Shown here: positions 1,025 to 48,731 of the stretch, one piece after another
Layout of the letters: each line of letters starts with the position of its first letter
Numbering within the stretch: the first letter of the stretch is position 1
Assembly: GCA_036269075.1 (NCBI GenBank)
Contig: DATASX010000078.1
Coordinates: 15,130-79,129 of the forward strand
Length of the DNA: 64,000 nt
DNA from: Sporichthyaceae bacterium
GTDB lineage: Bacteria > Actinomycetota > Actinomycetes > Sporichthyales > Sporichthyaceae
Direction: 5' to 3'
The notes under the pieces: generated by a model
What the model was told of the DNA's origin: nothing
The model's input: the letters and a program-made list of their open reading frames with translations, nothing else
The model's database searches: none
Position numbers and translations under genes: made by a program

Positions 1025-2550
1025 TGCCTTCGATCTGCGACACCCTGCGCTCCACCGCTGCCCGCTGCCCAGACCGGGAGGCACTGGTCTTCGGCGTTCG
1101 GCGCCGGTCCTACCGCCAGTTGTCCGACGACGTCGAGCGCGCCGCCTCAGCGCTTGCCGCCGCAGGGACGCGGCCCGGCGATCGAGTGCTGTTGATGGCC
1201 CCGAACAGCGACGCGTTCGTCGTCGCCGCGTACGCGGCCTTGCGTGCCGGAGCAATCCTGGTGCCGGCCAATCCCCGGAACGCCCCCCCGGAGATCGCCC
1301 ACCTGATTGCGGATTCCGGCGCGACGACAGTGCTCGGGGCCCCGGAGTTCGCCGAACTGATCACGGCGGGGATCGAGCGGGCAGGTGCCCGCTCGACTGT
1401 GTTCGCCCTCGGGCCCGGGTCGCCGTTCGGTGACCTGTTCGACGAACCGGAACGCGCTGAGGTCGCTCATCGGCCCGTCGAGTCCGACGACGCCTTGCTT
1501 CTGTACACCTCGGGAACCACCGGTAAACCGAAGGGCGCCTTGTTCGACCACCACCGGACCATGTGGGTCGGAGTGAACATGGCGGGTACCTGCGGCGTGC
1601 GGGATGCGGAACGGTTACTGCACGTCGCGCCGCTTTACCACGCGGCCCAACTCTGCGCGATGCTCTGGCCCGGCACGATCTTCGGTGCCACTCACGTCGT
1701 GCTGCCCGCATTCGAACCGGTCGCGGTGGCGGATGCGCTCGCGGCCGAACGGATCTCGGTGTTCTTCGGCGTACCGACCATGTACCAATTCCTGCTTCGG
1801 CTGCCGGATCTCGCGGTGCGCGACCTCACCGCCTTGCGGGTCGGGTTGTTCGGCGCGGCCCCGATGCCCGCGGCCACCGTCAAGTCCTTGCTGGAGGCGC
1901 TGCCGGGCGTGAGCCTCTATCAGTTGTGCGGCCAGACCGAGGCAGGACCGGGCGGGATCTACGCCGGGCCGGCCGACGTCGCGGCTCGTCCGGACGCCAG
2001 TGGCCGATACGCGTTGCCGAACACCGAGGCACGGGTGATCACGCCCGAGGGTGCCGAGGTGGAGCCAGGTCAAGTCGGCGAACTCATTCTGCGGGGGGAG
2101 ACGATCATGAAGGGCTACTGGAATCAGCCCGCAGCCACCGCCGAGACCATCCGGGACGGTTGGCTGCACACCGGCGACCTCGCTCGCCTCGACGTCGATG
2201 GCTACCTCACCCTCGTCGACCGACTGAAGGATCTGGTGATCACCGGCGGTCGCAACGTCTACTCGGTCGAGGTCGAGAACGTACTGGCCGGCCACCCCGA
2301 CATCGCCGACGTAGCGGTGATCGGGGTACCGCACGAGGACTACGGCGAGAGCATCCTTGCCGTCATCGCACCCGTCGAGGACCGCGAGCCGACCCTGGAC
2401 GACATCCGTTCCTGGTGCCAGGACCAGATCGCCGGCTACAAGATCCCCCACGCCGTGGTGTTGCATCCCATCCCACGCAACCCCTCCGGGAAGATCCAGA
2501 AGCACCTGCTCCGGGCCGAGCTCGCGAATTCCGTGGCGGTGCTGTCATGA
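1024..2550 (+). CDS. acyl-CoA synthetase / AMP-dependent ligase (FadD-like)
   Basis: Internal ATG at 1024 of the 145..2550 ORF (MPSICDTLRST...). AMP-binding motif LLYTSGTTGKPKGA, and later GWLHTGDLA and a PRNPSGKIQK C-terminus. The portion upstream of 1024 overlaps the crotonase gene in another frame. Confidence 0.9.
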   Translation: MPSICDTLRSTAARCPDREALVFGVRRRSYRQLSDDVERAASALAAAGTRPGDRVLLMAPNSDAFVVAAYAALRAGAILVPANPRNAPPEIAHLIADSGATTVLGAPEFAELITAGIERAGARSTVFALGPGSPFGDLFDEPERAEVAHRPVESDDALLLYTSGTTGKPKGALFDHHRTMWVGVNMAGTCGVRDAERLLHVAPLYHAAQLCAMLWPGTIFGATHVVLPAFEPVAVADALAAERISVFFGVPTMYQFLLRLPDLAVRDLTALRVGLFGAAPMPAATVKSLLEALPGVSLYQLCGQTEAGPGGIYAGPADVAARPDASGRYALPNTEARVITPEGAEVEPGQVGELILRGETIMKGYWNQPAATAETIRDGWLHTGDLARLDVDGYLTLVDRLKDLVITGGRNVYSVEVENVLAGHPDIADVAVIGVPHEDYGESILAVIAPVEDREPTLDDIRSWCQDQIAGYKIPHAVVLHPIPRNPSGKIQKHLLRAELANSVAVLS

Positions 2551-46434: not shown

Positions 46435-46614
46435 ACGGCACCCGACCAGCGTGTTTCGCTGCGCCGCCGCACGGACCGGACCGTCCCAGCGCCGTCCCAG
46501 GTAGGCCGGGCGGTGCAGGTCGGGCGGTCATGACCGCCATACCGGCGGAATCCGGGTCAAAGCCGCAAACATTCCGGCAAGACCGCGACCCCTGAGCGGA
46601 CCCCGCCGACCGGA

Positions 46615-46677
46615 GATTTGTCCCGGTCTGTCCGCTTTCGAACGCAGTGATTTGTCCTGGTTCGTCCCTATTTGTCC
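46615..46677. repeat. array of (G/T)ATTTGTCC / GGTyyGTCC direct repeats upstream of hydrolase paralog 1
   Basis: GATTTGTCC 46615-46623, GGTCTGTCC 46625-46633, GATTTGTCC 46649-46657, GGTTCGTCC 46659-46667, TATTTGTCC 46669-46677. Confidence 0.6.
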
Positions 46678-46749
46678 GCAAGGTCTAGTAGGTCAGGAAG
46701 ATCAGCTTTTGCGATCCGGACGCCGTTTACCGACCCCCGGCCCCGCTCT

Positions 46750-46922
46750 ACCTTCCGAATCCGTGAGTTCCTCGCGTCGGCTACGCCGGGAACCACGGAC
46801 GCTGAATTCGACTTGGCGGGCCTACCGGGCGCGTCGTCGGGGTCTGCACTCATATCCGGGCGCAGCGGGGACCCCAAATCACCCTCCGCACAAATCACTT
46901 TTGAACGACGGGAGTACAGCTG
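46750..46922 (+). promoter_or_regulatory. conserved structured 5' leader (riboswitch/attenuator-like; possible ydaO/c-di-AMP class), copy 1
   Basis: Blocks shared with 47901..48077: CCGAATCyGTG, CGTCGTCGGGGTCTGCA, GCAGCGGGGACCCCA, GGGAGTACA. GGGACCCCA (46868-46876) is complementary to TGGGGTCCC at the start codon (46924-46932). Confidence 0.4.
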
Positions 46923-47543
46923 ATGGGGTCCCAGTCCAGACGCGAGAAACGCGTGTTCCGTGACAGGGTGCTGATTGCCGCCCTCGGCCTTGCGCTGTCG
47001 GTCGGCCCGGTCGTCGGGGCGGCCGCGGGGGCCGAAGGTACCGCAGCCCCCGAAACCGTGGTCGGCATGCAGATAGCCGAGATGGCTCAGAGTTCCCAAC
47101 TCGTCGAACAGCAGGTGAGCGAGCGGTCGGCAATGCGGCCGACCCGCGCGCACACTCGACGGGTGCGGCGGGCCGCGGTCCGGCGGGCGAGACGGGCGAT
47201 CGGACGCAGACGGCACTGGCGGCACATGTGTCTGTCGTTCGTGCGAACCCGGTACCACCTGCCTCGGCGCCAGCACTCGGCGTACCGGGCCTGGCGGGCC
47301 GCGCACCACAAACACCGCCACGACCGGCGTCCGCCGGCCGGCGTCCCGGTGTTCTGGTCCGGCGGATCGCACCACCTGGGCCACGTGGCCATCTCCCTCG
47401 GTCACGGGTGGATCATCACCACCGACCTCCCGCGCACCGGCCACGTCACCCGGGTCCGCCTGTCGACCATCCACCGGCGCTGGGGATTGCACTACCTGGG
47501 TTGGACTGAGGACCTGGAGGGCTACCGGATCTACCGCCGGTGA
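46923..47543 (+). CDS. secreted, highly basic NlpC/P60-(papain)-like putative cell-wall hydrolase, paralog 1
   Basis: 206 aa with a signal peptide. Candidate catalytic Cys in WRHMCLSFVR and His in PVFWSGGSHHLGHVAISLGHG. C-terminal WGLHYLGWTEDLEGYRIYRR is identical to paralog 2. Confidence 0.65.
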   Translation: MGSQSRREKRVFRDRVLIAALGLALSVGPVVGAAAGAEGTAAPETVVGMQIAEMAQSSQLVEQQVSERSAMRPTRAHTRRVRRAAVRRARRAIGRRRHWRHMCLSFVRTRYHLPRRQHSAYRAWRAAHHKHRHDRRPPAGVPVFWSGGSHHLGHVAISLGHGWIITTDLPRTGHVTRVRLSTIHRRWGLHYLGWTEDLEGYRIYRR

Positions 47544-47574
47544 CCCGGATACCGCAGCGCCACCGCTCGACGAT

Positions 47575-47617
47575 CAGCCCCCGACCCGCACCGACGAGTC
47601 GGGGGCTGATTTTTTTC
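47575..47617 (+). terminator. rho-independent terminator
   Basis: Stem CAGCCCCCGAC (47575-47585) pairs with GTCGGGGGCTG (47598-47608), followed by ATTTTTTTC. Confidence 0.75.
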
Positions 47618-47747
47618 AGGTGCCCGAGCAGCGCCGGCGTTACACGGCACGCCGGGTCAACCGGGTGAACGGATTGTCGTTTCTGTTCGTTGCTCAGCTC
47701 CGGTGCGAGCCAAGGCCGCAAACATCACGGCAAGGAATCCGGCACGG

Positions 47748-47810
47748 GGTTTGTCCGATTGCCGCCCGATTTGTCCCGATTTGCGGAGTTTCCGGCCGGG
47801 TGGTTCGTCC
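47748..47810. repeat. TTTGTCC-type repeat array upstream of hydrolase paralog 2
   Basis: GGTTTGTCC 47748-47756, GATTTGTCC 47768-47776, GATTTGCGG 47778-47786, GGTTCGTCC 47802-47810. Confidence 0.5.
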
Positions 47811-47900
47811 GGATATGGAACGAAATGTCCGAATTGTAGGGAAGCTCCCAAGATCTGTTATTGCGATCACGCAGCGTTGACCGACCCCAATCCGGTACTT

Positions 47901-48077
47901 ACCGTCCGAATCTGTGTATCTCTCACGTCCGAATCTCGGGCCGGCGGGGAGAGCACGAGCTCTGGATCAGTTCCGACGGGCCCACAGGCCCGTCGTCGGG
48001 GTCTGCAGGCGTCGTACGCGTGCAGCGGGGACCCCATCACCCGCCGGACATCCGGTCTGAACCGAGGGAGTACAACC
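47901..48077 (+). promoter_or_regulatory. conserved structured 5' leader, copy 2
   Basis: Same blocks as copy 1. GGGACCCCAT (48028-48037) is perfectly complementary to ATGGGGTCCC (48078-48087). Upstream GGGGTCTGCA (47998-48007) can instead pair with TGCAG..ACCCC. Confidence 0.4.
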
Positions 48078-48731
48078 ATGGGGTCCCAAGCCCGAGCAGG
48101 GCGGAGCGTGGTCCGCCACAGAGTGCTCACCGCCGCGATAGGCGGGTTGTTGTCGGCCGGCGCGATCGTCGGTGTCGCCGCCCCGGGGGCACAGGCCGCC
48201 ACGGCCGCCGTCCCGGCAACCACGACGCCGCTCGCCCAGGCGCCCACGGCAGAGGTCGCGGCAGCCGCGACGCCGGTTGTGCAGGTGCCCGAACGAGTCG
48301 CGCGTCCGAGTGTGCCGAGCTACCTGCCCACCGTGGCACACACGCGACTGGTCGAGGCGATCGCGTTAGGGAGGGCCAGACGGGCCGTCGGCGCCCGAGG
48401 TGTCTGGCGGCACATGTGCCTGGGCTTCGTCCGGACGCGATTCGGGCTGCCCATTCGTCAGCACTCGGCGATCGGGGCGTGGTCCGTGTCGAGCCACAAG
48501 CACCGCTGGGACGCGCACCCGCCGGCGGGCGTCCCGGTCTTCTGGTCGGGTGGATCGCGCGGGCATGGCCACGTCGCCCTCTCGCTCGGCCACGGGATGA
48601 TCGTCAGCACCGACCTTCCGTACAACGGTCACGTCACCCGGACCACCCTGTCGGCCCCGCGCCGGCACTGGGGGCTGCACTACCTGGGTTGGACCGAGGA
48701 CCTGGAGGGCTACCGGATCTACCGGCGTTGA
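48078..48731 (+). CDS. secreted NlpC/P60-(papain)-like putative cell-wall hydrolase, paralog 2
   Basis: Internal ATG 48078 (MGSQARAGRSVVRHRVLTAAIGGLLSAGAIVGVAAPGAQA). WRHMCLGFVR ... GHGHVALSLGHG. Confidence 0.65.
   Translation: MGSQARAGRSVVRHRVLTAAIGGLLSAGAIVGVAAPGAQAATAAVPATTTPLAQAPTAEVAAAATPVVQVPERVARPSVPSYLPTVAHTRLVEAIALGRARRAVGARGVWRHMCLGFVRTRFGLPIRQHSAIGAWSVSSHKHRWDAHPPAGVPVFWSGGSRGHGHVALSLGHGMIVSTDLPYNGHVTRTTLSAPRRHWGLHYLGWTEDLEGYRIYRR

Follow-up and report, generated by a model that had tools for sequence, protein, structure and literature searches.

A conserved leader with a predicted start-codon-masking helix precedes tandem NlpC/P60-fold hydrolase genes in Sporichthyaceae

Peptidoglycan hydrolases are potentially lethal to the cell that produces them, and bacteria regulate these enzymes at several levels. 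In the maturation-protein gene of phage MS2 and in hok mRNA, long-distance occlusion of the start site is subject to kinetic (co-transcriptional) control, and the ydaO aptamer is a pseudo-two-fold-symmetric, multi-helix RNA with two three-way junctions and a pseudoknot. To our knowledge, the RNA-level controls of hydrolase genes in Actinobacteria are the cyclic di-AMP (c-di-AMP) riboswitch and the rpfB switch. A ydaO-type switch precedes nlpC in Corynebacterium glutamicum, where it was proposed to act on translation (PMC9960051), and the rpfB RNA switch of Mycobacterium tuberculosis has been reported as a transcriptional attenuator and is an orphan switch (Schwenk et al. 2018, PMC6009663). Here we analyse the leaders of two tandem paralogous genes for putative cell-wall hydrolases (copies 1 and 2), each with its own conserved promoter region, in a 64,000-nucleotide (nt) stretch of a Sporichthyaceae genome (contig DATASX010000078.1; hereafter the window). 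The leader is real and probably functional, and modelled folds lead us, on balance, to favour its being a translational sequestor that is OFF by default, carries a built-in anti-sequestor and acts in cis.

With ydaO/kimA (RF00379), this RNA has in common its length, its structured nature and its place in front of an actinobacterial gene for an NlpC/P60-type peptidase, but it has no detectable similarity to the family model and lacks the pseudo-symmetric aptamer. It shares with the rpfB switch the character of a lineage-restricted orphan 5′ untranslated region (UTR) before a gene for an actinobacterial cell-wall-degrading enzyme, and differs from the reported attenuator in having no terminator-like hairpin with a U-tract and in an alternative pairing that involves the start codon. 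The parallel with MS2 and hok lies in the design: the initiation region would be open only in a nascent or alternative fold, a long-range helix would close it at equilibrium, a competing upstream hairpin would delay closure, and no ligand would be needed. The genes and organisms are unrelated, and in the present case the behaviour is predicted from thermodynamic prefix folding only. The locus would add a third, unrelated leader design to those described for actinobacterial hydrolase genes, namely a start-codon-masking helix with a built-in competitor hairpin, combined with an elaborate, conserved promoter-upstream region and duplicated as a whole together with the gene. If the mechanism is confirmed, a little-studied, uncultured lineage of soil bacteria would provide a compact translational switch of three elements that is amenable to experiment.

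Two mutually exclusive predicted pairings, one of them with the start codon

Three short elements, here called a, b and c, define two competing helices in the leader (Table 1). Element b (GGGGACCCCA) can pair with the upstream element a (GGGGUC) or with the downstream element c (AUGGGGUCCC); the first six paired bases of c repeat the sequence of a, and b is complementary to both. A preliminary description of copy 1, made from the sequence alone, had proposed a hairpin in which GGGGTCTGC (46839-46847) pairs with GCAG (46862-46865) and ACCCC (46871-46875) around a CGGGG bulge (46866-46870), and a rival helix between GGGACCCCA (46868-46876) and TGGGGTCCC (46924-46932) that overlaps the ATG at 46923. 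All of these segments lie at the positions quoted, and the central idea, that a structured and conserved leader can adopt either of two competing pairings and buries the start codon in one of them, is supported by the pairing and conservation tests reported here. Mutually exclusive pairings that take in the Shine-Dalgarno sequence or the start codon are expected of riboswitch expression platforms in general, and a:b and b:c compete in this way.

The b:c helix is G+C-rich and comprises 9 base pairs (bp) in copy 1 and 10 bp, including the whole AUG, in copy 2. Among 5,000 dinucleotide shuffles of the UTR per copy, a perfect complement to the start region (positions −3 to +12) as long as the natural one arose in 22 for copy 1 (9 nt) and in 8 for copy 2 (10 nt), so the complementarity of b to the start region exceeds chance (0.2–0.4% of shuffles). 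Both partners are conserved, including at synonymous positions: codons 2 and 3 are always GGG (Gly) and TCC (Ser), although in the window only 20% of Gly codons are GGG and 32% of Ser codons are TCC, which points to selection at the nucleotide level. Predicted duplex energies in copy 1 are −10.4 kcal/mol for a:b and −19.4 kcal/mol for b:c; across the homologues described below, the b:c duplex ranges from −15 to −20 kcal/mol and the whole a-P3-b hairpin, in which a:b extends the P3 stem, from −14 to −24 kcal/mol.

Table 1 Features of the two leaders and their surroundings (window coordinates)
Feature	Position	Strand	Remarks
Distal conserved box GCAAACATTCCGGCAAG	46565-46581	+	about 190 nt upstream of predicted transcription start
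TTYGTCC direct-repeat array	46617-46677	+	units at 46617, 46651, 46661 and 46671; partly 10-nt period
GATCAGC-TTTT-GCGATC imperfect palindrome	46700-46716	+	just upstream of −35; candidate operator
Copy 1 predicted sigma-70-type promoter	46726-46754	+	TTTACC, 17-nt spacer, TACCTT
Copy 1 predicted 5′ UTR (leader)	46755-46922	+	
P1 5′-proximal stem	46762-46797	+	46762-46773 pairs with 46788-46797; encloses small hairpin
P2 hairpin core	46814-46836	+	46814-46821 pairs with 46829-46836
Element a, GGGGUC, predicted anti-sequestor strand	46839-46844	+	invariant save one-G shortening in L001 and L014
P3 hairpin	46844-46865	+	CUGCA (46844-46848) pairs with (U/C)GCAG (46861-46865)
Element b, GGGGACCCCA	46867-46876	+	pairs with a or c; invariant core
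Copy 1 Shine-Dalgarno GGGAG	46910-46914	+	8 nt before ATG; GGGAGU invariant in 9/9
Element c, AUGGGGUCCC	46923-46932	+	start codon and codons 2-3; invariant in 9/9
Copy 1 coding sequence	46923-47543	+	206 amino acids; signal-peptide-like N-terminus; C-terminal NlpC/P60-fold domain
Copy 1 intrinsic terminator	47574-47616	+	TCAGCCCCCGAC ... GTCGGGGGCTGA then T7; 12-bp G+C stem; lies between paralogs
Copy 2 promoter	47877-47905	+	TTGACC-17-TACCGT
Copy 2 leader	47906-48077	+	
Copy 2 element a	47998-48003	+	
Copy 2 P3	48003-48025	+	
Copy 2 element b	48027-48037	+	
Copy 2 Shine-Dalgarno	48066-48070	+	
Copy 2 element c	48078-48087	+	
Copy 2 coding sequence	48078-48731	+	217 amino acids; 56% identical to copy 1

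Nine homologous leaders and their predicted consensus fold

Nine distinct homologous leaders were recovered (w1, w2, L001, L011, L012, L014, L022, L023 and L025), every one directly upstream of an MGSQ-type hydrolase gene: copies 1 and 2 and seven further genes from Sporichthyaceae metagenome-assembled genomes (MAGs) or soil metagenomes. The upstream DNA was obtained by a genome scan, exact-protein look-ups and one metagenome pattern scan. Eight loci came from the pattern scan, and only L014 and L016 are homologous, L016 being the same contig as L026, which carries a shorter copy of the L025 leader; the other six (L015 and L017–L021) are unrelated and represent chance or pattern-imposed hairpins. 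A covariance model (R1) built from the nine leaders, with an effective sequence number of 1.6, scored the copy 1 leader at 137 bits and the copy 2 leader at 203 bits, and found no extra copy in the window and none upstream of the more distant homologues in L002–L010. The paralogous MAESGKHR subfamily (L002) carries no such leader. The element is lineage-restricted, with a very narrow distribution of one gene subfamily in one bacterial family.

Over a stretch of about 250 nt, the upstream regions of copies 1 and 2 can be aligned at a mean column identity of 78%, and their UTR identity is 0.67, bearing out the ordered blocks that the preliminary description had seen in both leaders. Across homologues, pairwise UTR identity is 0.67–0.95, compared with 0.53–0.90 at four-fold synonymous sites of the coding sequence, most of which are near saturation. 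UTR identity lies above four-fold-site identity in nearly all pairs (0.84 versus 0.55 for w2 and L025), and this excess indicates selection on the leader. All nine sequences have five invariant blocks in common, GGGUCUGCA, GCAGCGGGGA-CCC, GGGAGU, AUGGGGUCCCA and the 5′-terminal region, in leaders that are otherwise about 75% identical. Every invariant nucleotide has a place in the a:b, b:c or P3 pairings, in the Shine-Dalgarno sequence or in the start.

An RNAalifold consensus places three hairpins, P1, P2 and P3, in series and adds one long-range helix, in which GGGGACCCCAU of b pairs with AUGGGGUCCC of c. Standard pairs occupy 95% of the consensus cells in the nine homologues, compared with 42–48% when the partners are slid by 1–3 columns. 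The predicted fold is specific to the + strand, because its 52 G.U cells leave 95% of cells paired on that strand and 82% when the other strand is read. In P1, which has many G.U pairs, two adjacent pairs are doubly compensated in copy 1 (CG/UA to UA/CG), and the small hairpin within P1 holds two more doubly changed pairs. P2 shows one-sided, wobble-preserving changes only, and it is dispensable, since the natural variant L014 (114-272, minus strand) lacks about 42 nt corresponding to the P1–P2 linker and the whole of P2 while keeping P1, a-P3-b, the Shine-Dalgarno sequence and c intact. The stems of P3 are invariant in all nine leaders, and its apex is either an 11-nt loop with AAUCCGG or an extended G+C stem; as first described, the apex differs completely between copies 1 and 2 on identical stems.

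These patterns bear on whether the leader is an orphan riboswitch, in which a small molecule such as a cell-wall precursor or second messenger would bind a-P3-b or P1-P2-P3 and gate translation by stabilising one pairing over the other. Such a switch would fit the mutually exclusive pairing, which is a classic expression-platform design, the long leader with about 95% standard pairs in its predicted helices across nine homologues, the known use of riboswitches by actinobacterial cell-wall hydrolase genes (PMC9960051, PMC6009663), and the failure of any Rfam family to explain the RNA. However, a conserved multi-helix junction is absent from the leaders, and they have no conserved unpaired nucleotides other than the ones that a:b and b:c use. 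An aptamer core would be expected to consist of covarying helices around conserved junction or loop nucleotides. No such core is evident, and at the low power of nine sequences the doubly compensated pairs of P1 are accompanied by a P1–P2 linker that varies in length by up to about 20 nt, a P2 deleted together with its linker in L014, and a P3 apical loop replaced by a stem in w2, L012 and L025. Because every invariant nucleotide is otherwise used, and because the P3 loop, P2 and the linkers are plastic, a ligand-binding aptamer is not favoured; with the very narrow distribution also counting against it, we regard an orphan riboswitch as improbable. About as doubtful is the broader proposal that the leader founds a new class of signal-responsive RNA switch in Sporichthyaceae, responding to a ligand or a protein and gating the translation of autolysin-like NlpC/P60 hydrolases, with GGGGUC-P3-CGGGG-ACCCC as sensor and the start-codon helix as output. 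Of the riboswitch or attenuator logic invoked in the preliminary description, the mutually exclusive pairing with the start codon holds, whereas a ligand-binding sense is neither shown nor favoured.

One of the unrelated pattern hits contains a look-alike of P3: at 2072-2105 (minus strand) of L015, in an unrelated 237-kilobase contig, the hairpin GGGGGUCUGCGC...GCGCAGCGGGGACCCCC has the same CGGGG bulge and lies about 125 nt upstream of a gene that resembles, by eye, one for a secreted solute-binding protein. This hairpin is most likely pattern-imposed, and its R1 score is just 14.7 bits.

Predicted refolding and the default OFF state

The features expected of a sequestor and anti-sequestor, complementarity beyond chance and conservation of both partners, are present in the leader, and folding of growing transcripts suggests an order in which the two helices would form. 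Once b exists, a:b is part of the minimum-free-energy structure in all nine leaders (P 0.83–0.99), and it is still there in six of the nine just before the AUG is made. In full-length folds b:c is present in seven of nine (P at least 0.64), with P(b:c) 1.00 in copy 1. Constrained folds give b:c (OFF) as the minimum-free-energy state in eight of nine, the difference of OFF minus ON ranging from −9.2 to +3.8 kcal/mol, and in eight of nine the predicted folds leave few of the Shine-Dalgarno G residues unpaired. Since b:c is favoured once the first codons have been made, the default equilibrium state would be OFF.

In the mechanism that we favour, the 5′ UTR of a monocistronic mRNA for a secreted hydrolase would act in cis through the invariant elements a, b and c. 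In the nascent RNA, a:b, whose strands lie about 25 nt apart across P3, would form first as an extension of that hairpin, and the initiation region would be open. When the first codons are transcribed, the longer b:c helix would displace a and bury the AUG, while the G residues of the Shine-Dalgarno sequence would, in the predicted folds, be paired with a CAC(C/U)C stretch. Output would then be set by the short window before refolding, or by a factor that holds a:b or masks b, and the effect would be to throttle production of a potentially autolytic enzyme. In our view, kinetic refolding or a trans-acting factor is a better candidate for the toggle than an aptamer for a small molecule. In both L001 and L014, a is one G shorter and b is one C shorter, which provides a weak hint, and the only comparative one, that a:b itself is selected.

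Several observations weigh against this mechanism. The models favour the open state of L022 by 3.8 kcal/mol, with a:b persisting, and give a tie between the states of copy 2; the b:c helix of L001 and L014 reaches only 7 bp and leaves the AUG itself uncovered. Because the key helices a:b and b:c never vary (nine of ten b:c pairs are invariant), covariation speaks neither for nor against them; the check on homologous leaders that the preliminary description had called for yields compensatory changes in P1 and none in a:b or b:c. The RNAalifold covariation term is about zero, and folding z-scores of the whole leader are unremarkable in both copies (−1.6 and −1.9). The comparison encompasses just nine sequences from one bacterial family, equivalent to 1.6 sequences in effective number. 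The order of folding and the effect on translation come from thermodynamic models, the transcription start is predicted, and if the start codons annotated by NCBI were correct, element c would not contain the start codon.

The same folds can be read as a static leader, in which P1 and the other hairpins stabilise the mRNA through protection of its 5′ end, b:c sets a constitutively low rate of translation and all regulation is transcriptional. P1 begins within a few nt of the predicted 5′ end, most sequences adopt b:c at predicted equilibrium, and at least 200 nt of conserved promoter-upstream DNA with TTYGTCC repeats, a distal box and a palindrome would supply the regulation. We nevertheless consider a static leader rather unlikely, as an invariant element a reproduces the first six bases of c's pairing strand, a:b is predicted in every nascent transcript, and the joint shortening of a and b in L001 and L014 would be difficult to account for were a:b never to form.

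The leader matches no described RNA family

The preliminary description had likened segments of the leader to the ydaO-type c-di-AMP riboswitch and had asked for a scan against Rfam. No match was found when the whole 64-kilobase window was searched with cmscan against all 4,227 families of Rfam 15 at gathering thresholds. A permissive search (E ≤ 10) gave no ydaO match on 1.5 kilobases of the locus (1,551 nt), on a 206-nt leader sequence or on three orthologous contigs, and the matches that it did return were noise such as fragments of small nucleolar RNAs, microRNAs and long non-coding RNAs. The identification with RF00379 is thus rejected as far as the models can test it. Riboswitches of the ydaO class are associated with genes for cell-wall hydrolases or osmolyte transport. 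Gene context suits a ydaO-type riboswitch, in that an NlpC/P60-type hydrolase gene of an actinobacterium lies downstream (PMC9960051), and strings such as GCGGGGACCCCA resemble conserved ydaO segments. Context alone does not define membership, however, and the consensus is a row of hairpins with one long-range helix, of which P2 is dispensable, rather than a pseudo-symmetric two-junction fold. We consider a ydaO-type riboswitch extremely unlikely, and the case cautions that gene context and a few look-alike strings are insufficient to call one.

Other known kinds of leader were also rejected. A terminator scan and the sequence itself reveal no terminator-like hairpin with a U-run in the leader, as a transcription attenuator would require. 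No leader peptide or upstream open reading frame is conserved: the reading frames opened by the conserved GTG are not the same from one homologue to the next, and they run for anything from 18 to more than 60 codons. A G+C helix of 9–10 bp with the energies predicted for b:c appears too stable for an RNA thermometer. A literature search found no described NlpC-associated RNA motif besides ydaO. The leader corresponds to no described RNA family or published motif; the kind of mechanism proposed for it is already known, and its nearest biological parallels are the ydaO switch on C. glutamicum nlpC (PMC9960051) and the M. tuberculosis rpfB switch (PMC6009663).

Promoter, transcription start and start codon

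The positions of the leader depend on a predicted promoter and start codon. The hexamers and 17-nt spacing of a sigma-70-type promoter are kept in all nine homologous regions, with TTGACC-17-TACCGT in eight of them. From this arrangement we infer that transcription of copy 1 starts at about 46760-46762, which would give a leader of about 165–168 nt.

Translation likely starts at the ATG codons at 46923 and 48078. An invariant GGGAG lies 7–8 nt upstream, the ATG is conserved in all nine sequences, no insertion or deletion occurs between the ATG and the hydrophobic core, and a start at this codon supplies the positively charged N-region of the putative signal peptide. The NCBI annotation instead places GTG starts at 46968 (P0001, 191 amino acids) and 48108 (P0006, 207 amino acids), 15 codons downstream of the conserved ATG in copy 1 and 10 codons downstream in copy 2. 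The GTG starts are without the features listed for the ATG, and the deposited proteins are probably annotated too short.

Conserved DNA upstream of the promoters

Alignment of orthologous regions shows that conserved non-coding DNA reaches at least 200 nt upstream of the promoter. At its distal end, the box GCAAACAT-N2-CGGCAAG occurs in the window only at 46565-46581 and 47718-47734 (0.07 occurrences expected), and it is kept in all orthologous upstream regions that extend that far; it probably serves in regulation at the DNA level. The window has 16 TTYGTCC sites; seven of them, all on the + strand, lie clustered ahead of the two genes, and the repeats are kept in orthologues, making the array a candidate binding array for a transcription factor. 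In the palindrome next to the −35 hexamer, the AAGATC and GCGA blocks are invariant in nine of nine homologous regions, and the last two bases of GCGATC vary in three. As judged from this conserved DNA with its repeats, box and palindrome, transcriptional control by DNA-binding proteins is very likely layered on the RNA element. Viewed as a whole, the segments 46565-46720 and 47718-47870 have the appearance of a multi-site transcription-factor array.

Published half-sites of MtrA are GTnACC-like and recur with an 11-nt period (PMC5650626, PMC6265350). TTGTCC agrees with the MtrA half-site at five of six positions, but it differs at the conserved A and has a period of 10 nt, not 11; the repeats resemble the published sites but do not match them, and MtrA is an uncertain candidate for the TTYGTCC factor.

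Given that the upstream region clearly carries DNA-level sites, conservation within the leader might also reflect DNA, with the CCGAATC repeats and the GGGGTC and GACCCC strings serving as operators instead of RNA elements. Strings like GTCCGAAT do recur upstream of the promoter, at −10/+1 and, in copy 2, at about +20. The evidence from pairing nevertheless makes operators a very unlikely explanation of the leader: the arms lie 26–48 nt apart, which is atypical of operators, one arm falls within codons 1–4 and constrains synonymous positions, the 52 G.U cells would be A.C mismatches on the other strand, changes in P1 and P2 are one-sided and wobble-preserving, and L014 lacks P2 as one clean hairpin module.

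A short repeat links the predicted 5′ end to the interior of the leader. The sequence CCGAAUC(C/U) at the 5′ end (46755-46762 and 47906-47913) recurs in the inner hairpin of P1 in copy 2 (47927-47934) and in L012, and in the other subgroup the P3 loop holds it in the form (A/G)GAAUCCGG, as seen in L001, L011 and L014. A similar GTCCGAA is found about 90 nt upstream of the start.

Encoded hydrolases and gene neighbourhood

The preliminary description had called the downstream gene a putative cell-wall hydrolase, and this assignment is supported at the fold level by modelling. Pfam matches of the copy 1 product, which is 99% identical to the NCBI protein P0001 from a Sporichthyaceae MAG, fall below the cut-offs (CHAP, 19.8 bits with a cut-off of 26; NLPC_P60, 16.8 with a cut-off of 23). 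An AlphaFold2 model has a predicted local distance difference test score (pLDDT) above 90 across the C-terminal 100 residues, and a Foldseek search of the Protein Data Bank (PDB) matched LytE, Acd33800, MepS and RipA/B, all structures of NlpC/P60 DL-endopeptidases, with probability of about 1.0 and target-normalised template-modelling (TM) scores of 0.6–0.69. In the family alignment Cys103 is nearly invariant and His154 invariant, and together with the fold these residues, a putative catalytic pair, support a peptidoglycan hydrolase of the NlpC/P60 (CHAP-like) papain fold. The protein family is small, with 40 clusters in 5.8 billion proteins, and about 10 of these clusters start with MGSQ, like both window proteins.

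Each copy forms its own transcription unit, as a clear intrinsic terminator ends copy 1. This terminator has a 12-nt loop as read and was hence unlisted by the terminator scan, whose rule admits loops of 3–8 nt only. Neighbours of the window genes encode an S15 peptidase and a fused ABC transporter and are not kept at the other loci.

The linker of the copy 1 protein (residues about 74–135) is unusually rich in Arg and His. At L029, a homologue (the P0009 locus) has a long CAC/CGG-rich repeat run (1-268) upstream of it on the same strand, which would give a His/Arg-rich stretch (HHHRRHHH...) in one of three frames.

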